From the sequence record QB031382.1: 64,000 nucleotides of DNA; one strand, given 5' to 3'. Both the position numbers and the translations under genes were made by a program. How positions within the stretch are numbered: the first letter of the stretch is position 1; every line of letters starts with the position of its first letter. The notes under the pieces are model-generated. The model worked only from the letters and a program-made list of their open reading frames with translations, searched no databases and had not been told where the DNA came from. Source of the DNA: a phage. Shown here piece after piece: positions 48,444-64,000 of this stretch.

Positions 48444-48476
48444 AATAAAAAGGGGCCAAACGGCCCCTTTCTTTTT
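48444..48476. terminator. Bidirectional intrinsic terminator at convergent junction
   Basis: AGGGGCC / AAAC / GGCCCCT flanked by an A-run upstream and T-run downstream. Confidence 0.65.
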
Positions 48477-51937: not shown

Positions 51938-52171
51938 TTAATCTTCGTAAATCAGGATCTCTGCTTTAGGTTTTCGTGCTTTCAGGTCCAGCTCTATCCA
52001 GTGCACCACAGATGTTTCAAGAAAAACAGCCTGTATGCATCCGTCTTCAGCGTGTCCTACTAGCATAACAAGATCTTCACCTTCGTCATCTGCATCACGA
52101 ACATACAGAATCTCTCCAGATTCAAAGTCTTTCACAACCTGGTTGCTGGATAATTTACGAATTTTTGCCAT
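51938..52171 (-). CDS. Hypothetical acidic protein
   Basis: 77 aa; tightly packed in operon. Confidence 0.4.
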   Translation of the reverse strand: MAKIRKLSSNQVVKDFESGEILYVRDADDEGEDLVMLVGHAEDGCIQAVFLETSVVHWIELDLKARKPKAEILIYED

Positions 52172-52172
52172 A

Positions 52173-52436
52173 TCAGAAACCCTCTAAAAAGCTCTTGTAG
52201 AAAATAATCTCAGTATCCACACCAGTCACGATCTTATCGTTCCTGATTTCATCTGTAAGATAGGTGTCAAAACGCAGAACCTGTGTGGTGTTGTCACACA
52301 TCCACTCGGCTGTGACCATGGCGAAAATCTTAGCATCTTCATTGTCAGGTGTGAATGTTACCACCTCACCGCATTTAAACTTTTCGATAGGCTGCGTGTT
52401 AGCTTTCGGTTCTGCAATGGTTATTTTTGTGGTCAT
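52173..52436 (-). CDS. Hypothetical protein
   Basis: 87 aa; start overlaps upstream stop. Confidence 0.4.
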   Translation of the reverse strand: MTTKITIAEPKANTQPIEKFKCGEVVTFTPDNEDAKIFAMVTAEWMCDNTTQVLRFDTYLTDEIRNDKIVTGVDTEIIFYKSFLEGF

Positions 52437-52693
52437 TGTTCTTCCTCCATAGTTTCACCAAATACTTCGATACGAGCGTCAAGCTCTGTTGCTTTCAGCT
52501 CTCCAACAAAATCTTTCAGTTCTTTCTCGTCAAGATCATATGCCCACACACAAGATGAGCACGCAGATTTCACGATTAGCAGTGTAGATACACGACCTGA
52601 CTCTGTAATCATGCTCACAATAGTTCCTACAGGAAACGTGTTGATAGCTTTTTTAACTGGGCGTTCAGCTTTAATTACTACTTCTGTTGCCAT
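52433..52693 (-). CDS. Hypothetical protein
   Basis: ATG 52693 lies 9 nt after AGAGAGG; ATG 52702 abuts the RBS. Confidence 0.4.
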   Translation of the reverse strand: MATEVVIKAERPVKKAINTFPVGTIVSMITESGRVSTLLIVKSACSSCVWAYDLDEKELKDFVGELKATELDARIEVFGETMEEEQ

Positions 52694-52708
52694 AAATAAC
52701 ATCCTCTC

Positions 52709-54169
52709 TTATTTAGCGTACTCGATCAATTCTACAGTTTTCCCAAAGCTTGGGATATAATTTTTATTATACCCTTCGGTGAGAACCCATAAAGTATCGT
52801 ACTTTTTCCACTTGTTGTCAACAGCCTTTTGTTCAAAGTTATGCTCAAAGTATAGGTCGGTCAGGACGATGACATCTTTTGCATTTGGTATGTTAGCGTC
52901 CAGATACTCGAACACGCAAGCGGCTGTTGTTCCCCATGTTGAGTGGACCTCATAGTTGATCATCTCGTCGATGTTCCCACGAGTGTATACTTTAACCTCT
53001 CCAACCTCGGTTGACCAGCAGAACATCGTAACCTTGAACTCTTTATACAGATTGCACAACCCAGTGATCTCATTGAACATTTTCTTTAAAGTTCTTTGGG
53101 AGATCGATCCAGAAACGTCTAGAGCCACCACAATATCTATAGTGTTTTCCGGATTACGACCTGGAACAACAACGTGCTGATTCTTGTTTATAGCCCCAAC
53201 TTTTCGCATTGTGCTGGTCAAAGACCCAGATCGGCGACCGGGTTTTCTATAGGTTAGTTCAGCCTTTCGTTTAGACAGCATACGTTGCTTAATGATGTCT
53301 ATATAATTGATTACAGGCTTACCTCTGTTCTTGACAAACTCACGCACAGCCTCAGGGCAACGACCTCCGGAAGCCTGCATTGCTGCTTCCAACATGTCAC
53401 CAGAGTCCTGCATGGCTTGATCTTTATCAGATTGACTGATCACTGGTTGTGGCTGATCATACCCCATCGCCTTTCCAAGATCATCACTAGTGCCACCGTT
53501 ACCACTCATGTGATCATCGGTTTGTCGTTTATCTCCTTGAGAGTTCTCTCCTTTACCGTTCTTACTTTTACCGCTATTCTGATCTCTTTGCTTATCAAGA
53601 ACCGCATAGACGTTCTCAGCAATCCATCCATGGAACCTCATGTCACAGTAGCAACTAGCTAAGAAGCCAAAAGGCTTACCTTTTACAAACGTAGTGCTTT
53701 TCCCCTTCGGGAAGAAAACACAAGGTGGCTTGCTAAAGTCAACCACAAGACCTGTGTTGATAACATGATCACAGGCAATATTGAACAGCTCCGGCTCAAA
53801 GCTTTTACCACGGACCAGATGATCACAGATAATATGTCCCACCTCATGCGATAGAAGAAATGCCACCTCTTTCACAGATTTGGGGGAATAGAAAACCTCA
53901 GCCATCTCAAACTGCTTGTCAGTCAAAGATGCCTTAAGAATGGTTTTGCGCTCATCGGCCAATCCCATAACGAACTCAGGACTGTAATAAATGCGTTTAT
54001 GATCTGTTGCCATGGTGGAGCACCATGTGTGGTTTTCTACGAACTGCAACCCTGATAACAGTGTGCCATAAAACGGCAGTTTTTCAAGAAGATACATACG
54101 TGCTGCCTGCAGCATTCGCAAGGCGTCATCTTTTTGTGCGGCAATGATTTCTGAACTTCTGCTATCCAT
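52709..54169 (-). CDS. VWA-domain protein with N-terminal HExxH metallopeptidase-like region
   Basis: HEVGHIICDH (HExxH) in the N-terminal third. C-terminal DVSGSIS fits a MIDAS DxSxS motif. Gln/Asp/Ser-rich linker between. Confidence 0.55.
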   Translation of the reverse strand: MDSRSSEIIAAQKDDALRMLQAARMYLLEKLPFYGTLLSGLQFVENHTWCSTMATDHKRIYYSPEFVMGLADERKTILKASLTDKQFEMAEVFYSPKSVKEVAFLLSHEVGHIICDHLVRGKSFEPELFNIACDHVINTGLVVDFSKPPCVFFPKGKSTTFVKGKPFGFLASCYCDMRFHGWIAENVYAVLDKQRDQNSGKSKNGKGENSQGDKRQTDDHMSGNGGTSDDLGKAMGYDQPQPVISQSDKDQAMQDSGDMLEAAMQASGGRCPEAVREFVKNRGKPVINYIDIIKQRMLSKRKAELTYRKPGRRSGSLTSTMRKVGAINKNQHVVVPGRNPENTIDIVVALDVSGSISQRTLKKMFNEITGLCNLYKEFKVTMFCWSTEVGEVKVYTRGNIDEMINYEVHSTWGTTAACVFEYLDANIPNAKDVIVLTDLYFEHNFEQKAVDNKWKKYDTLWVLTEGYNKNYIPSFGKTVELIEYAK

Positions 54170-54181
54170 TAAAACTCCAGA

Positions 54182-54198
54182 AGGGGCCTTTGGCCCCT
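54182..54198 (-). other. Intercistronic hairpin between two leftward genes
   Basis: GGGGCC / loop / GGCCCC between stop at 54203 and start at 54169. Confidence 0.35.
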
Positions 54199-54202
54199 GT
54201 CA

Positions 54203-55192
54203 TTATTTAACGTGCTTGAAAATACCAGCCAACTCGGTCATTGTCATGCGGGTGGTCTTCATGAGGTCTGTCATAGCCTTCTCCATAATTGGAGATACTA
54301 CCATAAAGTTACCTTTGGTGAAACCTTTATTCCAGTCGGTAACTAATAGTGGTTTAAGTCCGGACCCGAGACGCTCACCAGTTAAAGCACAACATTTTCG
54401 AATGTATGTGCTCTTAAACTGGCTGAATGACAGATCAACTTTCATACCTGCATCGTAGAACGTCTGGCAATAGAAAGTGTAAGCTTTGGCAATCTCAACA
54501 TCGTCAGGCAGTGCAGGAACCTCTTCTGTAAGCTCTTCTTCGCCCCCTTGAGGCTCTTTTTCCTCTTCGTGGTCTTGTTGTATCATTTCTTCAATCTCTT
54601 CTGTTACAGGCTCGTTTACAATGTCAGAAATGTGCTTGTTGGCTCCACGATTAGCCATGAAGTTTTTAAAATCCTGCATTGGTGACATATCTTCCTCCCA
54701 TTCTTCGTCAAAGAGTGCTAGTTTATCCTCTTCCGTTCCATATTGCAAGATGAAATCTTCAAAAGTGTAATCACCTTTCAATTTCTCCATACGCTCTTCG
54801 CTCAGGTGGAGCATCATCTGCTGGACAATTTTTCGATCAGTTTTGTCTTTAATCAAGATTGCGGTCTTTTTATCTACCAGGCAGTCTTTCAGAGAGTTAC
54901 ACCTCAATCCTACCACACAACAGTTATCAATTGCGTAAGGACCTTCATCATCTATCCGCTCCAGAGATGGGTAGAAAGGATTCCCCAGCCCGTTTTCATC
55001 TGTGTGCATGTCGAAAGGTATAAGGGTATAGTCGCATACCCCCTCTCCTAAAAGTTTTTTACCAAATAGGAGGTATTCTTCCCATGACAGGTTGAACTCT
55101 ATATCTCGTTTCCGTGCATTATTTTGTTTGCGTCTGTATTTTTTGAGCAGGCGCTCTAACTCTTCTGGTGTATAATATTTTTCAAGATTCAT
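54203..55192 (-). CDS. Early protein with degenerate HNH_3-like segment and acidic linker
   Basis: ATG 55192 chosen because a promoter (TTGACA-17-TAAGAT) sits inside the TTG-initiated extension to 55258. LERIDDEGPYAIDNCCVVGLRCNSLK resembles an HNH_3 core lacking the catalytic His. Confidence 0.4.
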   Translation of the reverse strand: MNLEKYYTPEELERLLKKYRRKQNNARKRDIEFNLSWEEYLLFGKKLLGEGVCDYTLIPFDMHTDENGLGNPFYPSLERIDDEGPYAIDNCCVVGLRCNSLKDCLVDKKTAILIKDKTDRKIVQQMMLHLSEERMEKLKGDYTFEDFILQYGTEEDKLALFDEEWEEDMSPMQDFKNFMANRGANKHISDIVNEPVTEEIEEMIQQDHEEEKEPQGGEEELTEEVPALPDDVEIAKAYTFYCQTFYDAGMKVDLSFSQFKSTYIRKCCALTGERLGSGLKPLLVTDWNKGFTKGNFMVVSPIMEKAMTDLMKTTRMTMTELAGIFKHVK

Positions 55193-55223
55193 GAGTTGTC
55201 TCTTGTGCTCTGTAGGTGGAGAA

Positions 55224-55252
55224 ATCTTATCAAGTGCCTGGGAATATGTCAA
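55224..55252 (-). promoter_or_regulatory. Leftward sigma70-like promoter
   Basis: On the minus strand: TTGACA, 17-nt spacer, TAAGAT. Confidence 0.5.
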
Positions 55253-55265
55253 CCTCAAAAACGTG

Positions 55266-55294
55266 TTGACTTTACTCTAAATCCACGATATAGT
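55266..55294 (+). promoter_or_regulatory. Rightward sigma70-like promoter
   Basis: TTGACT, 17-nt spacer, TATAGT; divergent from the leftward promoter. Confidence 0.5.
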
Positions 55295-55334
55295 TCACCC
55301 ATTCGAAAGAAAACGAACACAGGAGTACTTAATC

Positions 55335-56234
55335 ATGGCAAATCTTAACAGCTTTAGCACTCGATGGAAACAAGATATCACAACTAATCTCTCTGCAGGC
55401 GATATCCTTTCTGCAATTTACGAGGCTTTGGATGATAAAGCTACTTCAAAATCGGTTTGTACCAACCCGTTAATTCCTATGGTAATGAAGGTGATTGAGC
55501 GTAGGTTGGTATCCGGATCTGATAAGTGGACATATCTGGATAATGGAGGCCACACTTACTCCAACGGCTATGTAGATATAAAAGTAGAATATGCGGTATC
55601 ATATCGCCGGAGCGGCTCTGTAACTTTCAACTTCTCTGGTGGTTTCCGATCTCTGGCAACTTCACCTTTTGTTTCCTCAGAGCAGAAGTTTGAACTTCCG
55701 TTCCTTTGGATGATGGCTAACGCGACAGGCAAAACCCCTGTAAGCATTCGCGTAAAATACAACTACAACGGATCTAGTAAGATCTATGCCGAGAGTGTCT
55801 CAGCAAGTTTTTATTTTGTGATGGGGGATGGAATCCTCAAACATATAAAGATGTGCGATATGCATGATGTTATAAATGAAGTGACTGATAAGAATGTTCT
55901 GGTGAAGGATCTCAACAATTTTTATACACCGGGAGACTATTACGTCAACCGTCCACTGTGCATCTTTAATGCTGCACACCCTTTAGGTGAGTATTTGATT
56001 GCCAATAGTGATATTGCCAATAACCGCTTCGAGGTAGCAAGAGTACAGAATGAGGTGTTGACATCTTGCAAGAGCGGTGATAAGTTTACCGAAGAAGAGA
56101 TGGGTGTTTTAGAAATGATGGGATATAAGTGTAGCCTTTGGGTAGATGAGGTGTTTAATGACGGCATCTATGGACAGGATATTTACCCGTTAAAGAAGTA
56201 TACTGATTCCAGTTTAATTTACGCGGAGATTTGA
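55335..56234 (+). CDS. Hypothetical protein
   Basis: 299 aa; RBS AGGAG; first gene of the rightward operon. Confidence 0.5.
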   Translation: MANLNSFSTRWKQDITTNLSAGDILSAIYEALDDKATSKSVCTNPLIPMVMKVIERRLVSGSDKWTYLDNGGHTYSNGYVDIKVEYAVSYRRSGSVTFNFSGGFRSLATSPFVSSEQKFELPFLWMMANATGKTPVSIRVKYNYNGSSKIYAESVSASFYFVMGDGILKHIKMCDMHDVINEVTDKNVLVKDLNNFYTPGDYYVNRPLCIFNAAHPLGEYLIANSDIANNRFEVARVQNEVLTSCKSGDKFTEEEMGVLEMMGYKCSLWVDEVFNDGIYGQDIYPLKKYTDSSLIYAEI

Positions 56235-56236
56235 CT

Positions 56237-56509
56237 ATGATGAAGGCATGTGGTAGTGTATACTATGTGGGTGAAAATGTTCAGGCAGACAGTGTGTGGA
56301 AATCCATTAAGTCCACCACCGATGATGCCTTCTTGAGCGGGCTATGTTTCCCCAATCCTGGAGACATTCTCCCTCACCCTGGGGATTTTGTTGTTAACAA
56401 GACAGATGGTTATACTGTGTGCCTGATGGTTGAAAAAATCTTTTTAGACACTAGACACAATCACCGTCTTGTGTTAAAATTTCAAGAATGTAAAATGACA
56501 GTTGCCTAA
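56237..56509 (+). CDS. Hypothetical protein
   Basis: ATG 56237 after GGAG; TTG 56231 alternative. Confidence 0.4.
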   Translation: MMKACGSVYYVGENVQADSVWKSIKSTTDDAFLSGLCFPNPGDILPHPGDFVVNKTDGYTVCLMVEKIFLDTRHNHRLVLKFQECKMTVA

Positions 56510-56521
56510 GGAGGCCTACCA

Positions 56522-56881
56522 ATGTCTAAAGTTACTTATCGTGCAGCTATTTACTGCAATGAGCAACCAATCAATAGTGATGGTCACTGCTTTTTTAAAG
56601 AAAATCAGTTGGGCTGTATTGCCCTCCTTGATGAAGGGGAAGGTTATATGATTGCATTGACAGGGTTTGAGCCTGAAGCCTTGGAAGCCAATCTGGACTA
56701 CCTGGTAGAGAAGGGTGCTGCAGACTTGGTTGCCAATGGCCTCTCCATAAGCCTTGAAGAAGTGGAGCGCTTCATGGGCAATTACCGTGTAGTGCGTGAG
56801 TTTACTGTCGAGGTGGAAACTCCAGAGTGGGGTAGCACTGAAACTAATGCTGAAGAAAAAGAAGAGGGGGTAGAAGAATGA
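56522..56881 (+). CDS. Hypothetical acidic protein
   Basis: RBS AGGAGG; 119 aa. Confidence 0.45.
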   Translation: MSKVTYRAAIYCNEQPINSDGHCFFKENQLGCIALLDEGEGYMIALTGFEPEALEANLDYLVEKGAADLVANGLSISLEEVERFMGNYRVVREFTVEVETPEWGSTETNAEEKEEGVEE

Positions 56882-57135
56882 AAGTGCAGATCTTGACTAA
56901 TGCCGAGAAGATGTTTATCGAAGATACGCCTTTTGAAACTGGTGAGCTACAGTTTGTATATTTTGTTGACTTAGATAAGGTTTTTCCTGCGCTGAATCTG
57001 GGTTTGGAGAAAGTACCTTATAAAACTCTATGCCAGGTTGTCCGTGCCTTAGCTGCAGATGGGGAGTTCCACACCCTTGAAGATATCCAGACCTATGGGT
57101 ATCTTGAACTGCAACGAGAAGAAGAGGTAGACTGA
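56878..57135 (+). CDS. Hypothetical protein
   Basis: 85 aa; start overlaps upstream stop. Confidence 0.45.
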   Translation: MKVQILTNAEKMFIEDTPFETGELQFVYFVDLDKVFPALNLGLEKVPYKTLCQVVRALAADGEFHTLEDIQTYGYLELQREEEVD

Positions 57136-57137
57136 TA

Positions 57138-57518
57138 ATGGCCCAGTGGAAGACAACAGTTGACCTTCATGATCAGTGGTTAGGACGCATAACTGAAGAC
57201 GGGAAACTGGTAGAGTGGGACAACAAGCATGTTAGCGAGTTGGCAAGTATTGTGGCTGGCAAGTTACGCTCCAAGTTCCCTGAACAACTGGATCCTGATA
57301 GTTCAAAGTTCGATCCTGAGTTGGAGGATGTTGTATACTACTTCGACACCGTGGATGACTACGATGCGTGGTTTGCAGCACTGGAGTTATACCCACAAGG
57401 ATCCGCTATGCGCCGGATGGAAGAAGATTACCCTCCGTGTGAGCAATTCAATAGTGCAATGACTTGCCTTTATGATTGGGCAGATAAGAACCTTGTCTGG
57501 ATTCGGACTGCATTTTAG
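57138..57518 (+). CDS. Hypothetical acidic protein
   Basis: 126 aa. Confidence 0.45.
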   Translation: MAQWKTTVDLHDQWLGRITEDGKLVEWDNKHVSELASIVAGKLRSKFPEQLDPDSSKFDPELEDVVYYFDTVDDYDAWFAALELYPQGSAMRRMEEDYPPCEQFNSAMTCLYDWADKNLVWIRTAF

Positions 57519-57562
57519 TGGGTAGGGATGGCGGCAAGGATGCTGCTTAAGGAGCAGTAGAG

Positions 57563-57832
57563 ATGTTATACCAGCAGTACGAACTTCGTGCAGAAAAAGA
57601 ATTAAATTTTGACAAAGATATTCACAGATATTATTATGGGAAAGTTAGAGGACAAGCAAGAAAGTGTACTCCAACACTCTTTCATGCCAGCAGACGACTA
57701 GCTCCAGAAGAGGCAACAGCAGAAAGGGTTGCATATGGCTGGAGAGTTGCGTATGATATTGACAGATCCGATGTGATGTCTGTTTTGGAAAACTTTGAAA
57801 ACACTTACACACAAGTAGAGGACTTTTACTAA
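57563..57832 (+). CDS. Hypothetical protein
   Basis: 89 aa; RBS GGAG. Confidence 0.45.
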   Translation: MLYQQYELRAEKELNFDKDIHRYYYGKVRGQARKCTPTLFHASRRLAPEEATAERVAYGWRVAYDIDRSDVMSVLENFENTYTQVEDFY

Positions 57833-59016
57833 TGTCAAGAAACGTATTCGAAAGTGGTCAAATCACTGTCCGCGAGTTGCCAGCTATTATTCAATTTGCC
57901 CAGCGTCATAACCGATCTGTCCTGATTTTAGGACCGATGGGTGTGGGGAAGAGCCAGGTGATGAAGCAGATTGCTGATAATATGTTCGGTGAGCGAGATG
58001 ACAACCTGGTTGACGTGCGGCTGTCAGATAAAGATCCTGCTGACTTATCTGGACTACCTATCCCTGTAGAGGCAGATGGAACTACACGCACAGTGTTTGC
58101 AATTCCAGAATTTTGGCCTGCAGACTCGGACTGGAGCGGAATTATCTTTCTGGATGAGCTTACTCATGCAGATAACTACCTGCAGAAGGTTGCAATGCAA
58201 ATTATGCTCGACCACAAGTGCGGCACCTATGCATTTCCTAAGGGCTCTGTTTTTGTAGCTGCAGGTAACCGTGCTACAGATGGTGCTGTTCTTTCGGCGC
58301 TCGAAGCTCCTCTGGCTAACCGCTTTATCATTGTAGAAGTTACAAGCAATGCAGAGGTATTTATTGAGGACTACGCATTCCTTAATGGTGTACATTCCTC
58401 TGTAATTGGATATCTGAAAAGAGTTCCATCAGCTATCGATAATTATGAGGCTATGGCTGAGATTAATTGTCCGTCTTTTGCCACACCGCGATCTTGGGTT
58501 GCTGCATCTGACATCCTGCACGATTTTGACAGCGGTATTATTTCTGACGCTATGGCTCGTGTTCTTCTGCAAGGTGCTATTGGTCACACTGCAGCGGTAG
58601 AAATCTGGACCTACCACACCAAGAAACGAAACTTGCCAGAAATCGGTCGGATTATGGCAGGGGGTTGCAAAGAGTATGTAGGTCCTAAGCAGCCAGACAT
58701 CTTGTGGATTCTGGGGTCTGAAGGTTGTATCGCTATTCGTAACATGATGGAAAATGCAAGTATCTCCGACGAAGATCTTGTCAGCTGTGTGGCAAACTTC
58801 CTTGATTTCCTTTGGGAAAATTTCAAAGATGAAAACCGAGACTTTGTATTCTCAGTCTTTATGGCGATGATGAAACCCAACGCCCTAGGGAATGCCTTAC
58901 TTATTGGTAAAGGCCGGGACAAGATCGTTGCTCAGCTGATCAAAGCATACCCAAACCTGATGAAGATTGTAAAAGAGTTTGGTGAAGAGTTTAGCGCCAT
59001 TTTAGCTAAAGCTTGA
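57832..59016 (+). CDS. AAA+ ATPase, MoxR/CobS-like (AAA_5-type)
   Basis: Walker A GPMGVGKS, Walker B IIFLDELTHA, then VFVAAGNRATDG. Single-module length typical of MoxR-type ATPases. Confidence 0.6.
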   Translation: MSRNVFESGQITVRELPAIIQFAQRHNRSVLILGPMGVGKSQVMKQIADNMFGERDDNLVDVRLSDKDPADLSGLPIPVEADGTTRTVFAIPEFWPADSDWSGIIFLDELTHADNYLQKVAMQIMLDHKCGTYAFPKGSVFVAAGNRATDGAVLSALEAPLANRFIIVEVTSNAEVFIEDYAFLNGVHSSVIGYLKRVPSAIDNYEAMAEINCPSFATPRSWVAASDILHDFDSGIISDAMARVLLQGAIGHTAAVEIWTYHTKKRNLPEIGRIMAGGCKEYVGPKQPDILWILGSEGCIAIRNMMENASISDEDLVSCVANFLDFLWENFKDENRDFVFSVFMAMMKPNALGNALLIGKGRDKIVAQLIKAYPNLMKIVKEFGEEFSAILAKA

Positions 59017-59025
59017 GGAGGTTGT

Positions 59026-59406
59026 ATGGCTAAAGTAGGTAAGCGGGGAAACTACCTGGTGGTATTGACAGAGGAGCCGGAGAAGGAGTACGAATGCAGC
59101 TCCACCTGCGTGATCGATATCCGAGAAAAAGATGTAGATGAAATCTGGTTTAAAATACTGGACGCTTGCGACAGTAGTGATTATTTCTTCATCTATGTCA
59201 ACGATAAAGCTGGGTTCTTCCATGACGATGGAGAGTTACCGTATGAAATCTATGAACTTGTAGAGGCTTGCCATCGTGGAGATGCGGAGTTGTTTGGTCT
59301 ACGGCTGAAAAGCGGTAAATTTTTCTACCAAGATGAGTGCATGAATCTTCACAACTTCGTAGAGGGGACTTGCAATGATGGAGAGATTTTGGCACACTAC
59401 GACTAA
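59026..59406 (+). CDS. Hypothetical acidic protein
   Basis: 126 aa; RBS GAGGAGG. Confidence 0.45.
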   Translation: MAKVGKRGNYLVVLTEEPEKEYECSSTCVIDIREKDVDEIWFKILDACDSSDYFFIYVNDKAGFFHDDGELPYEIYELVEACHRGDAELFGLRLKSGKFFYQDECMNLHNFVEGTCNDGEILAHYD

Positions 59407-59418
59407 TTTCTAAGACCA

Positions 59419-59446
59419 CCCCCGCTTCGGCGGGGATTTTCTATTT
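59419..59446 (+). terminator. Intrinsic terminator
   Basis: CCCCGC / TTCG / GCGGGG followed by ATTTTCTATTT. Confidence 0.55.
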
Positions 59447-59455
59447 GGAGTTATT

Positions 59456-59956
59456 GTGAAAATTAAGATCTTTGCTATTATTTTGAGCGCATTTTTATCG
59501 CTGCCTGTTGTTGCAGCACCAAAACAAAAAGTATATCACACCTGCAAGCCATCGGATACTAAGGAAAACATTCTAGCATGTAATATCTACAGGGAGGCTA
59601 GAGGGGATGGCACGATGGGTATGCTGGCATCAGGGTTTGCCACACTAAACAGGAAATCTCACCCCAAATACCCGGACACCATAAGAAAGATTGTCTACCA
59701 ACCTAACCAGTTTTCGTGGACAAACCACGGCAAAACTTTTAAGGTGACAGAAAAAGATTCATGGGATCACGCTAAAAGTCTTGCAAAGATGCTTCTAAAG
59801 GTCTATAATAACAACCATGTTGCATACATGGCTATGGATATAACAGGTGGAGCAACACACTATCATACAACAAAAGTACGACCGAAATGGGCAAAAAAGA
59901 TGCAGAGGACAGCTCAATTCGGGAGTCATATCTACTACAAGGAGCGCAATAAATGA
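59456..59956 (+). CDS. Secreted cell-wall hydrolase (SleB/CwlJ Hydrolase_2-like), candidate endolysin
   Basis: GTG start after GGAG. N-terminal signal-peptide-like MKIKIFAIILSAFLSLPVVAAP. Domain motifs NIYREARGDG ... GGATHYHT ... RPKWA. Confidence 0.6.
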   Translation: MKIKIFAIILSAFLSLPVVAAPKQKVYHTCKPSDTKENILACNIYREARGDGTMGMLASGFATLNRKSHPKYPDTIRKIVYQPNQFSWTNHGKTFKVTEKDSWDHAKSLAKMLLKVYNNNHVAYMAMDITGGATHYHTTKVRPKWAKKMQRTAQFGSHIYYKERNK

Positions 59957-61935
59957 TTGTAAACAGTAATGAAACTAAAGCAGTGCTAACTGGGAATTTG
60001 GAGGTAACAAGGGGATCAATTTCTCTGAACAAAGAAACTTTTGGGTTAATCATTAAAGGGATTTATGAAGATAAGGTGCTGGCAAGCTGCCGTGAACCAA
60101 TCTTCAATGCTGTGGACTCTCATGTTGAGTCTGGACGTGGTGATGTTCCGATCATCATTCACTCCCCTACAGATCTTGAACCATACTTCTTTGTGCAGGA
60201 CGTTGGCCTCGGTATGTCAGAAGAGATGGTCCGCAACACTTTCATGAACCTCGGCGAGTCAACCAAGCGCGACAGCAACGATCTGGTAGGCAATAAAGGT
60301 GTTGGTTCAAAGGCCCCGTTCAGCATGGTGGACACTTTCGATGTAATCAGTGTGCACAATGGTGTGGAAAGCACATACCTATTGTTCTTGGACCAGGGTA
60401 TCCCAAATGTCACCAAGATCCGTGAGCGGAAGACTGAAGAGCACAATGGAGTAAAAGTTCAGTTTCATGTTAAGAAAGAGCATGTTCTGAAATATCGCAC
60501 CGCTATTGCATCATGTCTGCGCTATGCAAAATTTCCGTTCACTGTCACCGATCCGATGACGAGCAAGATGCTGGAGGGAGACAAAGTAGAGGCGCAGTAT
60601 TATTATGAAAAAGATGGTTGGAAGATGACCATCCTGAAGGGCTATACCAGCTCTGACGAGAGTCGTGTGGTAATGGGTCACCAACCTTACCGTTCTAAGT
60701 TCCTGGAAACACTAACAGATTATCCTGCAATTTGTGTAGAGATCCCTATCGGAGATTGCAATATTAACCCAGGGCGTGAATGGACCATAGAAGGTCACGA
60801 CGATGGTGGATTCCAAGAGCGTTTGGAAGCTTTTGTCAAAGAAGGCATTCGCCTTCGTGGAGCAGAAGTTGTTGCAGAACTGGAGACAGCAAAAACATCC
60901 TCAGAAGCACGCGAGATGATGAAGAACAGTGGAGTGTTCGGGCACATCTTCGGTAAGAATTTTATGTATAACCGTTGGGAAGAAACAGGACTAGGGAATT
61001 TGGGGGACTGCGAGATCTTCGCGGGTGGCTTAAATAAAGGCCGCATAGGCTACGCTTGTTACGGAAAGGTAGAATTCTTACGAGGAGTCTATTTAGTATT
61101 TAACGACGGAGACGGTAAATATAACCGAAATAAGTGTAACTACTTAAGCGAGATCACCGGACGCAACGTTTTCTATTGCCGGAACACGGATCTGGTAAAA
61201 GAGTTTAAAGAGGCGGCACACCATCCGTTTTTTGCAGATACGGTCAAATTGTTATCAGAGCTTCCTCGCCGACCTGTGAAGAAAGGTGAAACCAAAACTC
61301 GTTACGAGCCAGGCTATTGGGTTAAAAAACTTGAGAAGGATGGTTACTTCCGTCGTGAGCGTATTACTAAGGCAGAGTTCAGGAAGATTAAGCACTGCAT
61401 TCCTTATGAGGGTGATATCCAACGTGGAAGTTGTTGGCTGGGACAGCTGAGTAACATCTACCAGCAAAATTATGACCGTGTGCGTGCGGCACTCCAGATT
61501 CCTGAAGGGGAAGATCTGTACCTAGTATCAGAATCTCGTCTGCTTTGGACTGATCCTGATTGCCAGTATGTTACAGAGAAGAATGTGGAACATTTGTTGA
61601 AAGAGGACGCCTGGAAATTCTTACTGACTCGCGCAGCAAATGAAACTTCATATGACAGCCTGTATAGACAATTAGGGAAAATTATTCCCATGCAAGATTT
61701 TGGAAATTATCGGCCACATTTCCACAAGTGGGAAGGTAACACCGCGTGGAAGCACAGTGAGCTAAATCATCGTGCCAAAATCTTAATCGCCAACCGAGTT
61801 AAATGCGGGAAGGCCTATATTGCAAGATTGGAAAAGAAATACCCACTTTTGAAGCATGTAGGCTTGAAATATTGGGACACTCCTGCTATGATTGAATACC
61901 GTGAACTGATCGATACAAAGAATAACATCAAATAA
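59953..61935 (+). CDS. rIIA: rIIA-like protein with N-terminal GHKL ATPase fold
   Basis: GHKL motifs in order: EPIFNAVDSH, VQDVGLGMSEEMV, GNKGVGSKAPF. Closely parallels the T4 rIIA N-terminus as recalled. Confidence 0.6.
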   Translation: MIVNSNETKAVLTGNLEVTRGSISLNKETFGLIIKGIYEDKVLASCREPIFNAVDSHVESGRGDVPIIIHSPTDLEPYFFVQDVGLGMSEEMVRNTFMNLGESTKRDSNDLVGNKGVGSKAPFSMVDTFDVISVHNGVESTYLLFLDQGIPNVTKIRERKTEEHNGVKVQFHVKKEHVLKYRTAIASCLRYAKFPFTVTDPMTSKMLEGDKVEAQYYYEKDGWKMTILKGYTSSDESRVVMGHQPYRSKFLETLTDYPAICVEIPIGDCNINPGREWTIEGHDDGGFQERLEAFVKEGIRLRGAEVVAELETAKTSSEAREMMKNSGVFGHIFGKNFMYNRWEETGLGNLGDCEIFAGGLNKGRIGYACYGKVEFLRGVYLVFNDGDGKYNRNKCNYLSEITGRNVFYCRNTDLVKEFKEAAHHPFFADTVKLLSELPRRPVKKGETKTRYEPGYWVKKLEKDGYFRRERITKAEFRKIKHCIPYEGDIQRGSCWLGQLSNIYQQNYDRVRAALQIPEGEDLYLVSESRLLWTDPDCQYVTEKNVEHLLKEDAWKFLLTRAANETSYDSLYRQLGKIIPMQDFGNYRPHFHKWEGNTAWKHSELNHRAKILIANRVKCGKAYIARLEKKYPLLKHVGLKYWDTPAMIEYRELIDTKNNIK

Positions 61936-61945
61936 GGAGACCAAG

Positions 61946-63151
61946 ATGATTTTCATCTACGAACATTTCAAAACCCGTAAAGAAGCAAGAGACCGCCGTG
62001 CAGAACTTGAGAAGAAGGGTTTCATATGTGCCATTGAGAAAGGCGACACAACCTGGACACTGGCAGTTGGTGCCCCAGAGTTGTTCGATCCTGACCGTGA
62101 CAGCGTCTGCTACACCCGTGAAGATTTTGAAACCCGCGAAGAGGCCCGTTTATTTCGATACGGTCTGGAAGATAACGGTAAGTACGCCATGATCTTAGAT
62201 TTAGGCGAAGGGTCCGTTAAACGTTGGGGCGTGGTATACCCACTGTGTGTTGTTCATGGTGTGGGGTTCACTGGGGTAGCAATCAAGTCAGAAGAACCTT
62301 TAGTAGAAGTCAAAGATCCGGTGCTGGAGGTGGTGAGCAGTGTATCTCAGCAACAGACTCGAAGTATTGAGCCTTTGGTAGTTATTTGTGGGGAACTCCT
62401 CCAGATCACCTGCAACGAAGGCATTTTTGAAATTCGCCGCAGTGAAAGTGAGGAAGTTTACCAGAAAGTCTTCGACCATATCTCTGCCCAGAAATATGAC
62501 GAGGCAATTGGTGAAATCCTTGTCTGGTTGGAACGCAAGAATGAGTTCACTACACTTGCAGACAACCTGATCATGAAAGATGGTAAGCTCTACTACTACG
62601 GTGTAGAGATGCGATCCACCATTGCAAAGAAAATTGAGAAAGATTATGCAGACGGAACACTAGATGACCGCTATGTGAAATTCCTAGTTCGCCTGCTACG
62701 CAATCCTTCTGCAAAATCTGTAAACATGCTCTACGATTTTATGCAGGCCAACGATATCCAGGTTGCAGAAGATGGTCGAATCATTTGCTACAAAGGGGTT
62801 CAGTTTAACGGCAGCAAGTGGGTGGATTGGCACAGTGGTAAAGTTCCACAATACCAGGGTGCTTTTGTATCCATGCCTCGTAACTTTGTAGAGGATGATC
62901 CTGAAGCTGCTTGCTCCTATGGCTTACACTGCGCCAGCAAAGAGTATGCAAAGAGCTACGGCACTGTAATGACTGTTATGGTTGATCCTGCAGATGTGGT
63001 CAGTGTGCCATACCAACACAATAGCGCTAAGTGCCGTGCATGCCGCTATGAGATTGTGGTAGCTCCGGAAGCACGCAAAGACGGAGACCCTATTGAATAT
63101 GTAGTTGATCGTGACGGTAACACTATCGACATTCTTTACGAGGAGGCGTAA
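61946..63151 (+). CDS. rIIB: rIIB-like protein
   Basis: C-terminal NPSAKSVNMLYDFMQANDIQVAEDGRIICYKGV ... GLHCASKEYAKSYG ... VDPADVVSVPYQHNSAKCRACRYEIV parallels T4 rIIB as recalled; adjacent to rIIA-like gene. Confidence 0.6.
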   Translation: MIFIYEHFKTRKEARDRRAELEKKGFICAIEKGDTTWTLAVGAPELFDPDRDSVCYTREDFETREEARLFRYGLEDNGKYAMILDLGEGSVKRWGVVYPLCVVHGVGFTGVAIKSEEPLVEVKDPVLEVVSSVSQQQTRSIEPLVVICGELLQITCNEGIFEIRRSESEEVYQKVFDHISAQKYDEAIGEILVWLERKNEFTTLADNLIMKDGKLYYYGVEMRSTIAKKIEKDYADGTLDDRYVKFLVRLLRNPSAKSVNMLYDFMQANDIQVAEDGRIICYKGVQFNGSKWVDWHSGKVPQYQGAFVSMPRNFVEDDPEAACSYGLHCASKEYAKSYGTVMTVMVDPADVVSVPYQHNSAKCRACRYEIVVAPEARKDGDPIEYVVDRDGNTIDILYEEA

Positions 63152-64000
63152 TGGAAAAAGGGCAGTATGATGTAGGCACAGATGCTGCCCTCGTTGCAAT
63201 CATGAGCGGTGAGAATGTCTTCGTTTCAGGACCTGCAGGTTGTGGGAAGACGTATCTCATCAACATGATCCAGTCAATGTATGGAGACTCTTGCATAACG
63301 GTTGCCCCGACAGGGGTAGCCGCTTTAAACGTTAATGGAGCAACAGCACACCGAACCTTCGATCTTGCAGCAGGTGTGAGCATGGAGTCAGACTGGACCG
63401 CAATAAGGGCAAAAACAGCAAAGCCTTTGAAAAGCAAGGCATTTACCATCCTAATTATCGATGAAATCTCTATGATCCGTGCTGATAAGTTTATAGAGAT
63501 GGATAGGAAACTCCGCTTCCTTCGAAAAAATGACAAACCTTTCGGAGACATACAGGTCATATTGTTTGGCGATTTTTACCAGGCACCTCCTGTTGTCTCT
63601 TCTATGGAGAAGGAAGCCTACTTCAACTTCTACCATACGGACCTGTGTTGCTATACCGAATCTTGGAAAGAGCTTGACCTCCACAACATAGCCCTAGTAG
63701 ATCAGTTCCGACAGGAGTCTATTCGATTTGCCACAATGCTCAACTGTGTTCGTGAGGGTCGTCGCATAAAAGAGGTTGTAGCAGAACTTAATGCTCGCTG
63801 TTACAAAGGCGGTGTACCAACAGACGCTCTCACAATTTGCGCCACCAACAAACAAGCGGAGGAAGTGAACAGAAGGTTCTATGATGCCATCAACGCCCCA
63901 GAGAAGGTATACACTGGTGAAATGAAGGGTAAGTTTCCCTCCACCCTGCCAGTTGAGCAGGAGATGAAGTTGAAAATTGGCATGAAAGTTATGATAACCG
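63151..64000 (+). CDS. Pif1/RecD/Dda-like SF1 helicase (3' end outside window)
   Basis: ATG overlaps upstream stop (TAATG). Walker A GPAGCGKT, APTGVAA, IIDEISM, ILFGDFYQAPPV. ORF runs to window end. Confidence 0.65.
   Translation, partial: MEKGQYDVGTDAALVAIMSGENVFVSGPAGCGKTYLINMIQSMYGDSCITVAPTGVAALNVNGATAHRTFDLAAGVSMESDWTAIRAKTAKPLKSKAFTILIIDEISMIRADKFIEMDRKLRFLRKNDKPFGDIQVILFGDFYQAPPVVSSMEKEAYFNFYHTDLCCYTESWKELDLHNIALVDQFRQESIRFATMLNCVREGRRIKEVVAELNARCYKGGVPTDALTICATNKQAEEVNRRFYDAINAPEKVYTGEMKGKFPSTLPVEQEMKLKIGMKVMIT

Follow-up and report, generated by a model that had tools for sequence, protein, structure and literature searches.

We analysed a 64,000-nucleotide stretch of phage DNA (sequence record QB031382.1), hereafter the window, which belongs to an rV5/FV3-like Vequintavirus (coliphage), and focused on the minus-strand gene at 52709-54169. 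Its product of 486 residues, referred to below as the VWA protein, combines a zincin-like HExxH domain with a VWA domain, and its gene forms a near-obligate pair with that of an AAA+ ATPase of 394 residues (57832-59016, plus strand). The VWA protein probably acts as a target-binding, proteolytic cofactor of this early/middle AAA+ remodeller, with an accessory, host-specific role in infection. Databases and the literature already contain the gene with its domains and partner, as well as its likely functional class, and the window reveals nothing new about them. The pair is nevertheless among the very few genes common to N4-like podoviruses, rV5-like myoviruses, RaK2-type jumbo phages, AR9 and many marine phages. 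Moreover, the sensitivity of phage Bas54 lacking the ATPase to the defence system DS-28, described below, offers a tractable phenotype for asking whether the zincin-VWA protein is the substrate adaptor of the ATPase and whether proteolysis is involved.

Conserved HExxH and MIDAS motifs of the VWA protein

Two Pfam domains were assigned to the VWA protein. DUF2201_N (PF13203, "putative metallopeptidase domain") matched with E = 5.4e-28 (98.8 bits for a gathering cut-off of 23.2) and, C-terminal to it, DUF2201 (PF09967, "VWA-like domain") matched residues 346-481 with E = 3.4e-11 (43.8 bits for a cut-off of 26.4). Conservation was analysed on a main alignment of 28 sequences, down to 25% identity, and on a second alignment to which gp25 of the N4-like phage G7C, g029 of Bacillus phage AR9 and gp481 of Klebsiella jumbo phage RaK2 were added. 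In the 28-sequence alignment, residues H108, H112, R120, N130, A132, D134 and N138 of the N-terminal domain and residues D351, S353, S355, T414 and D438 of the MIDAS are invariant, and E109 and H117 are conserved in at least 90% of the sequences. The same conserved residues stay invariant when the three more distant proteins are included. Since both Pfam matches exceed their curated cut-offs and the motifs are conserved, the association of HExxH and MIDAS lies far beyond chance. The N-terminal HEVGHIICDH (residues 108-117) and C-terminal DVSGSIS (MIDAS, with DVSGS at residues 351-355) pointed out in the initial annotation are thus present, backed by Pfam and conserved. The VWA family is very large, an exhaustive profile search yielding 26,789 clusters (50% identity) at E <= 0.001, and the HExxH motif was found in all 69 VWA open reading frames (ORFs) of the ATPase-seeded loci presented below.

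The conserved residues of the N-terminal domain have a zincin-like layout: H108, E109 and H112 lie on helix 99-118, which also bears the nearly invariant H117, and the invariant D134, a candidate third metal ligand, lies on the next helix. Inteins are typically placed in functionally critical motifs. The homologue P0051 (794 residues) contains a Hint and LAGLIDADG_3 intein after "HEVLHC", at about window residue 113, and the homologue P0104 (733 residues) is interrupted after "NMAC", at about window residue 133, by an intein-like insert with "THN" at its end. Two independent intein sites within one small domain are unusual, and their location inside both N-domain motifs suggests that HEVGHIICDH and NIACDHVIN are functionally critical.

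An AlphaFold2 model of the full-length protein was obtained with a mean pLDDT (predicted local distance difference test) of 80.7, the linker at residues 200-228 being disordered, and a separate model of the N-terminal 335 residues reached a pLDDT of 82.7 and a pTM (predicted template modelling score) of 0.74. In the N-domain model, a three-stranded sheet is followed by the long HExxH helix and then by the helix with N130, D134 and N138, an order of elements that would be compatible with a zincin core, and a Foldseek comparison of this domain with the PDB gave no meaningful match. The VWA domain is modelled with a Rossmann-like VWA fold, and its structural matches include the MIDAS domains of NorD, BchD and midasin. 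Structure prediction therefore recovered the VWA part of the proposed architecture, while for the zincin part the agreement is limited to the order of the elements. Direct sequence search of the PDB with the VWA protein returned no match, and its profile returned only marginal matches to integrin I-domains and one M48 peptidase (E = 0.58). The protein is thus a putative metallopeptidase, an assignment that rests on family membership and motif conservation.

The protein is called "HNH endonuclease" in PHROG 1314 and in several RefSeq records. We rejected this name because Pfam and NCBIfam scans found no HNH family; it is a propagated mislabel, still spread by Pharokka-type annotation, and seems to go back to an early note on similarity in the record of RaK2 (L066, 2971-4356). 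An identity with CobS/CobT was also rejected, neither protein of the pair matching the CobS or CobT models of Pfam or NCBIfam. Finally, NCBIfam and PADLOC assigned no family to the VWA protein and gave only P-loop noise for the ATPase, and thus give no sign that the pair originated in a known defence system.

Association with an AAA+ ATPase

The ATPase is the sole member of its family in the window. In an alignment of 15 members of this family, the Walker A (G34-x2-G37-x-G39-K40-S41) and Walker B (D108-E109) residues are invariant, as are the sensor-1/arginine residues N146-R147 and the arginines R164 and R220. The family profile matched the AAA modules of midasin (E = 1.6e-16), with RavA, CbbQ and NorQ absent from its top 60 matches, and 6-8 of the 15 members match Pfam AAA_3, AAA_5 or bpMoxR (best E values of 7e-8, 5e-8 and 6e-6). 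These matches agree with the expectation that proteins with the HExxH/VWA architecture partner MoxR-type AAA+ ATPases.

A survey of co-occurrence, set beforehand as a test of the pairing, was carried out on two independent samples: 58 viral contigs seeded with the VWA gene, and 80 contigs seeded with the ATPase gene, 70 of which had enough downstream sequence to be informative. The ATPase gene lies at most 10 kb from the VWA gene in 53 of the 58 VWA-seeded loci, two of the five exceptions being cut by the contig end. Conversely, the VWA gene is present in 69 of the 70 informative ATPase-seeded loci, with a median gap of 75 bp. Among GenBank phages, the VWA protein was found in 672 records and the ATPase in 813, with near-equal numbers per genus (214/214 in Escherichia, 26/26 in Pectobacterium and 17/17 in Cronobacter phages). 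Besides, the pairwise identities of the two proteins are correlated (r = 0.985 over 54 loci), a value to which shared genome phylogeny contributes. The two genes therefore co-occur across related phages and their products co-diverge, in support of the ATPase at 57832-59016 as the partner, as had been proposed. The VWA-seeded loci L009, L024 and L044 have no detectable ATPase gene within 10 kb, and the ATPase-seeded locus L138 lacks a VWA gene in the 10 kb that follow; these four are candidate natural "uncoupled" cases. A GenBank search with L009 gave no match.

The pair is also seen in a megaphage contig, in one bacterial genome and in phages G7C, AR9 and RaK2. Its bacterial and megaphage context was sampled via three homologue-encoding contigs. 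In a 578-kb JGI contig of megaphage size (L060, 1592-8591), the pair stands among HSP20, ClpS and ClpP genes, a proteostasis neighbourhood. In the bacterial assembly GCA_045600625.1 (L063), it lies between a gene for an SNF2-type helicase with DUF8437 and genes for leucine-rich repeat, metallophosphatase, Ser/Thr kinase and PP2C phosphatase proteins; these surroundings look like a conflict or signalling island, not a prophage.

A derived split layout with a shared promoter-like region

In the window, the two genes are on opposite strands, 3.66 kb apart, with the strand switch at 55258/55335, and the initial annotation described the pair as split over two transcription units. The same divergent arrangement, at a distance of 3.4-5.1 kb, was found in all 20 viral loci of the rV5-like clade with the ATPase, where the VWA protein is at least 41% identical to that of the window (L002-L008, L010-L020, L022), and in phage YP-6 (L001). 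In loci where this identity is at most 38%, by contrast, the ATPase gene is always immediately upstream, on the same strand, an order also seen for N4 gp24/gp25 and in RaK2, AR9, marine phages and a bacterial genome. This distribution indicates that the split is a derived rearrangement of the rV5/GAP31/4MG clade, and the layout is specific to this Vequintavirinae clade. Of the 21 viral loci that make up the split clade, 20 retain both genes; the exception is L009, where no ATPase gene was detectable within 10 kb.

Both genes flank the intergenic region 55193-55334. On the plus strand, it contains the sigma-70-like match TTGACT-17-TATAGT (55266-55294) and, on the minus strand, TTGACA-17-TAAGAT with a TG extension (55252-55224), both being matches to the consensus only. 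The ATPase gene is also preceded, at a distance of about 200 bp, by a further 11/12 promoter match. With one shared divergent promoter-like region, two transcripts need not mean separate regulation. Thus, the description of the pair as split stands for the strands, with the qualification that the split is specific to one lineage and that co-regulation is not necessarily lost. Concerning the timing of expression, the AR9 pair is located directly behind an annotated early promoter (GenBank record), and N4 gp24 and gp25 are middle genes (PMC4193335). Early expression in the window phage, where sigma-70-like promoter matches are present, is plausible.

Counterparts in other phages and in cells

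A nearly identical counterpart is found in Bas54 (Escherichia phage MaxBurger), where bas54_0055 is identical to the VWA protein at 477 of 486 positions (98%) and bas54_0063 to the ATPase at 391 of 394 (99%), in the same gene order and with no substantive difference from the window pair.

In N4-like phages (Schitoviridae), gp24 (AAA ATPase) and gp25 (vWFA) are two of the 14 core genes, and their function is not known there (PMC4193335, PMC2784036). A literature search for data on the essentiality of gp24 and gp25 found none. By tblastn, the VWA protein matched the "N4 gp25-like protein" of LIT1 (E = 5e-18) and gp25 of G7C (E = 2e-10), and the ATPase matched its G7C counterpart (E = 3e-15), which belongs to the same ATPase family. 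The N4-like gp25 proteins have the same invariant HExxH...D and MIDAS residues. Unlike the window protein, they are about 390 residues long and lack both its insert of about 30 residues before the HExxH helix and its long acidic/glycine linker. Their genes also differ from the window pair in being adjacent and co-directional. In G7C (L064), only the HNH homing endonuclease gene gp24.1 (2459-2935) lies between gp24 and gp25, and the 0.9-1.5 kb gaps between the pair genes of some marine loci may hold similar insertions.

Iyer, Anantharaman, Krishnan, Burroughs and Aravind (2021) described a MoxR AAA+/metallopeptidase-vWA chaperone-cochaperone pair in group 2.2 jumbo phages and proposed that it acts in virion assembly and proteolytic processing (PMC7824862). 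This is the same two-gene module, with a vWA domain fused to an N-terminal metallopeptidase, and both window proteins gave direct tblastn matches in RaK2 and G17-type phages; the genes are adjacent there and split in the window phage. The same pair, with the same motifs, is encoded by g028 and g029 of Bacillus phage AR9, which infects a Gram-positive host, and g029 is annotated as "zincin-like protease fused to vWA domain". It differs from the window pair by its identity of 23% and by its adjacent, co-directional genes.

The cellular systems RavA-ViaA, CbbQ-CbbO, NorQ-NorD, CoxD-CoxE and midasin likewise associate an AAA+ ATPase of the same broad clade with a target-selecting MIDAS VWA partner. 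The window proteins resemble them in the structure of the VWA domain, close to NorD and to the midasin MIDAS, and in the match of the ATPase profile to midasin. However, the cellular VWA partners have no zincin-like domain, the systems mature or remodel specific enzyme complexes, and no orthology with them was detectable in Pfam or NCBIfam.

Transposon-sequencing data from phage Bas54

Bas54 was mutagenised in the HIDEN-SEQ transposon-sequencing preprint of 2025, in which both genes of the pair are non-essential on Escherichia coli K-12 (81 of 86 TA sites hit in bas54_0055 and 60 of 64 in bas54_0063), whereas the capsid, tail and protease genes received zero insertions (10.1101/2025.11.20.689424). 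In the same work, deletion of the ATPase gene bas54_0063 led to sensitivity to the predicted defence system DS-28 of the uropathogenic E. coli strain CFE311. When K-12 and CFE311 were compared by resampling, the log2 fold change (log2FC) of the ATPase gene was -7.23, and that of bas54_0055, listed as "putative metallopeptidase", was -2.20, i.e. an approximately 4.6-fold depletion (p = 0.0009, q = 0.009). The operon neighbours of bas54_0055 were unaffected on CFE311, with -0.08 for the upstream gene bas54_0056 and values from -0.09 to +0.47 for the downstream genes save two non-significant ones (10.1101/2025.11.20.689424), which makes a polar effect unlikely as the cause of the bas54_0055 depletion. 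As factors against DS-28, the preprint singles out the ATPase and bas54_0140 and no other protein, and bas54_0055 is significant in its supplementary table (10.1101/2025.11.20.689424). Thus, although the initial annotation regarded the function of such pairs in phage infection as not established, this preprint provides an anti-defence phenotype for the ATPase gene and a weaker one for the VWA gene. Our literature search on DS-28 found the system mentioned, without a description of it.

The sheet used (Extended Data Table 8, "Data S6 resampling_K-12_vs_CFE303") bears a CFE303 name, but its command line and data files are those of strain 311, and we took its numbers as K-12 versus CFE311. The next sheet has an identical header, and the CFE303 table was perhaps replaced by a duplicate.

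A further gene of the region behaves similarly on CFE311. The window ORF 63121-64000 (plus strand), cut at the window end, encodes a P-loop protein, and its counterpart is the Bas54 "DNA helicase" bas54_0068: in both genomes, the ATPase gene is followed downstream by rIIA and rIIB and then by this gene; the equivalence is by gene order only. Like the pair, bas54_0068 is non-essential on K-12, and it is strongly depleted on CFE311 (log2FC -6.32, q = 0), a magnitude similar to that of the ATPase gene (10.1101/2025.11.20.689424).

Proposed function and alternative explanations

In the role that we propose, the AAA+ ATPase would presumably form a ring and supply mechanical work. The VWA domain would recognise the target, its MIDAS metal binding an acidic residue either of the target or of the ATPase, and the N-terminal zincin-like HExxH domain would provide the chemistry, most likely cleavage of the bound protein. 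This module would be expressed early to middle in infection. As the Bas54 mutants show, neither growth nor virion production on E. coli K-12 requires it, and it contributes to infection of hosts with particular barriers, e.g. DS-28. In this scheme, we infer complex formation, peptidase activity, the identity of the substrate and a direct anti-defence effect.

Several observations weigh against this proposal. First, on CFE311 the VWA gene has a much milder phenotype than the ATPase gene, an approximately 4.6-fold depletion compared with a complete loss, so that for that function the ATPase is not strictly dependent on the VWA protein. Second, the status of core gene in N4-like phages and the conservation of the pair across very different phages are unusual for a dedicated counter-defence factor and suggest a broader role; the DS-28 phenotype is perhaps a side effect of it. 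Third, the window ATPase falls below the Pfam thresholds (17 bits for AAA_5, threshold 22; 15.8 bits for bpMoxR, threshold 27). The initial annotation had called it the only MoxR-like ATPase: it is indeed alone of its family in the window, but Pfam does not reach "MoxR-like" from its own sequence, and it seems fair to apply the term at the level of the family and not from the window sequence alone.

A bolder version of the proposal, which we put forward tentatively and consider rather unlikely, is that the pair is a broadly conserved counter-defence protease machine. Host immune or stress proteins, DS-28 components for example, would be captured by the MIDAS, unfolded or extracted by the ATPase and cleaved by the HExxH domain. 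If true, pairs of the N4 gp24/gp25 type would represent the first phage-encoded system that counters immunity by ATP-driven proteolysis, and hundreds of virulent phage genera would carry it.

Another explanation could be that the two proteins have been functionally uncoupled in the split lineage, the ATPase alone countering DS-28 and the zincin-VWA protein acting independently elsewhere. The separation of the genes on opposite strands, 3.4-5.1 kb apart, throughout the rV5-like clade loci with the ATPase and in YP-6 would fit this, as would their very unequal effects on CFE311 (-7.23 and -2.20). We nevertheless find uncoupling improbable: all but one of the 21 viral loci in the split clade have kept both genes, the two proteins diverge in parallel, both genes are depleted on CFE311 when the flanking genes are not, and both flank one promoter region.

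The role in virion assembly put forward for jumbo phages, in which the pair would fold or assemble structural proteins as a chaperone-protease and trim them proteolytically, was based on the analogy with Acidianus two-tailed virus, whose tails require a MoxR/VWA pair to develop (PMC7824862). The position of the RaK2 pair, after two virion structural protein genes, and that of the megaphage pair, among HSP20, ClpS and ClpP genes, can be read in its favour. Yet the two genes are non-essential on K-12, with about 94% of their TA sites hit where capsid, tail and protease genes tolerate no insertion, and the pair is in early/middle, not late, gene blocks in AR9, in N4-like phages and in the window phage. 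Non-essentiality and early/middle neighbourhoods together disfavour this idea, to which we give little credit.

We attach no greater weight to a chaperone for metal-cofactor insertion or enzyme activation, of the CobS/CobT, BchI/BchD, NorQ/NorD, CoxD/CoxE or CbbQ/CbbO type, that would mature or reactivate a metalloenzyme, e.g. an enzyme of nucleotide metabolism, with HExxH holding a metal and not cutting protein. None of these systems has an HExxH domain, neither protein matches a CobS, CobT or chelatase family in Pfam or NCBIfam, the window neighbours (anti-sigma-like gene, rIIA/B, cell-wall hydrolase) are unrelated, and the Bas54 genes cause no growth defect on K-12 when disrupted. Finally, we consider it very improbable that the N-terminal HExxH domain, instead of being a peptidase, has another metal-dependent enzymatic activity or a metal site of purely structural value, even though some HExxH domains are alpha-ketoglutarate-dependent oxygenases.

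Features and surroundings of the locus

The coordinates of the features are collected in Table 1. The VWA gene starts with an ATG codon, separated by a six-base spacer, 5'-TTTTAA-3' (54169+1..+6), from its Shine-Dalgarno sequence GGAG (54175-54178). Its neighbours in the window include an anti-sigma-like gene, rIIA/B and a cell-wall hydrolase gene.

Table 1. Position of the genes, domains, motifs and regulatory elements discussed in the text, in window coordinates.
Feature	Position	Strand	Evidence
Zincin-like/VWA gene, 486 residues	52709..54169	-	ORF; PF13203 and PF09967; PHROG 1314, E = 5e-122; orthologue of bas54_0055 and of the N4 gp25 family
N-terminal DUF2201_N domain, residues 1-335	53165..54169	-	Helical bundle, three-stranded sheet, active-site helix, ligand helix
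HEVGHIICDH motif, residues 108-117 (H108, E109, H112, H117)	53819..53848	-	Invariant or nearly so in the alignments
NIACDHVIN motif (N130, A132, D134, N138)	53756..53782	-	Invariant in both alignments; D134 is the candidate third metal ligand
Low-complexity Gly/Lys/Asp-rich linker, residues 200-228	53486..53572	-	pLDDT <50 in both models; length varies in the alignment; predicted disordered
C-terminal VWA domain, residues 344-486	52712..53140	-	Complete MIDAS: D351-x-S353-x-S355, T414, D438
DVSGS of the MIDAS, residues 351-355	53105-53119	-	Motif match
GC-rich hairpin AGGGGCC-AAA-GGCCCCT, perfect 7-bp stem	54182..54198	-	Follows the stop codon of the upstream anti-sigma-like gene and precedes the ribosome-binding site of the VWA gene
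Divergent intergenic control region	55193..55334	.	Back-to-back sigma-70-like promoter matches (consensus only)
Partner AAA+ ATPase, 394 residues	57832..59016	+	PHROG 1297 "ATPase", E = 2e-110; N4 gp24 family; orthologue of bas54_0063

The 8-kb region around the VWA gene (window 52000-60000) shows 97.9% identity to Escherichia phage vB_EcoM_SYGMH1, which also has a GenBank coding sequence whose product is 100% identical to the VWA protein. Coverage of this region reaches 80% or more in 114 phage records of GenBank. Sixteen records (MG0656xx) named "Campylobacter phage", unannotated and with Campylobacter jejuni as host, are about 94% identical across all 8 kb and are apparently coliphages whose host was mislabelled.

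The hairpin upstream of the VWA gene (54182-54198) is followed on the minus strand by only a short T run, and it may be an attenuator, a processing site or an RNA-stability element. Between 47500 and 60000, the window contains 32 sigma-70-like matches, an excess over the 21.9 +/- 4.4 found in shuffled sequences. Three 11/12 minus-strand matches lie within the leftward cluster, at 51618-51590, 51259-51230 and 49151-49123. Where this cluster meets the rightward structural genes, a strong stem-loop (48449-48470) has T tracts on both sides, and the GC skew changes sign over 48-56 kb, in parallel with the strand switch.

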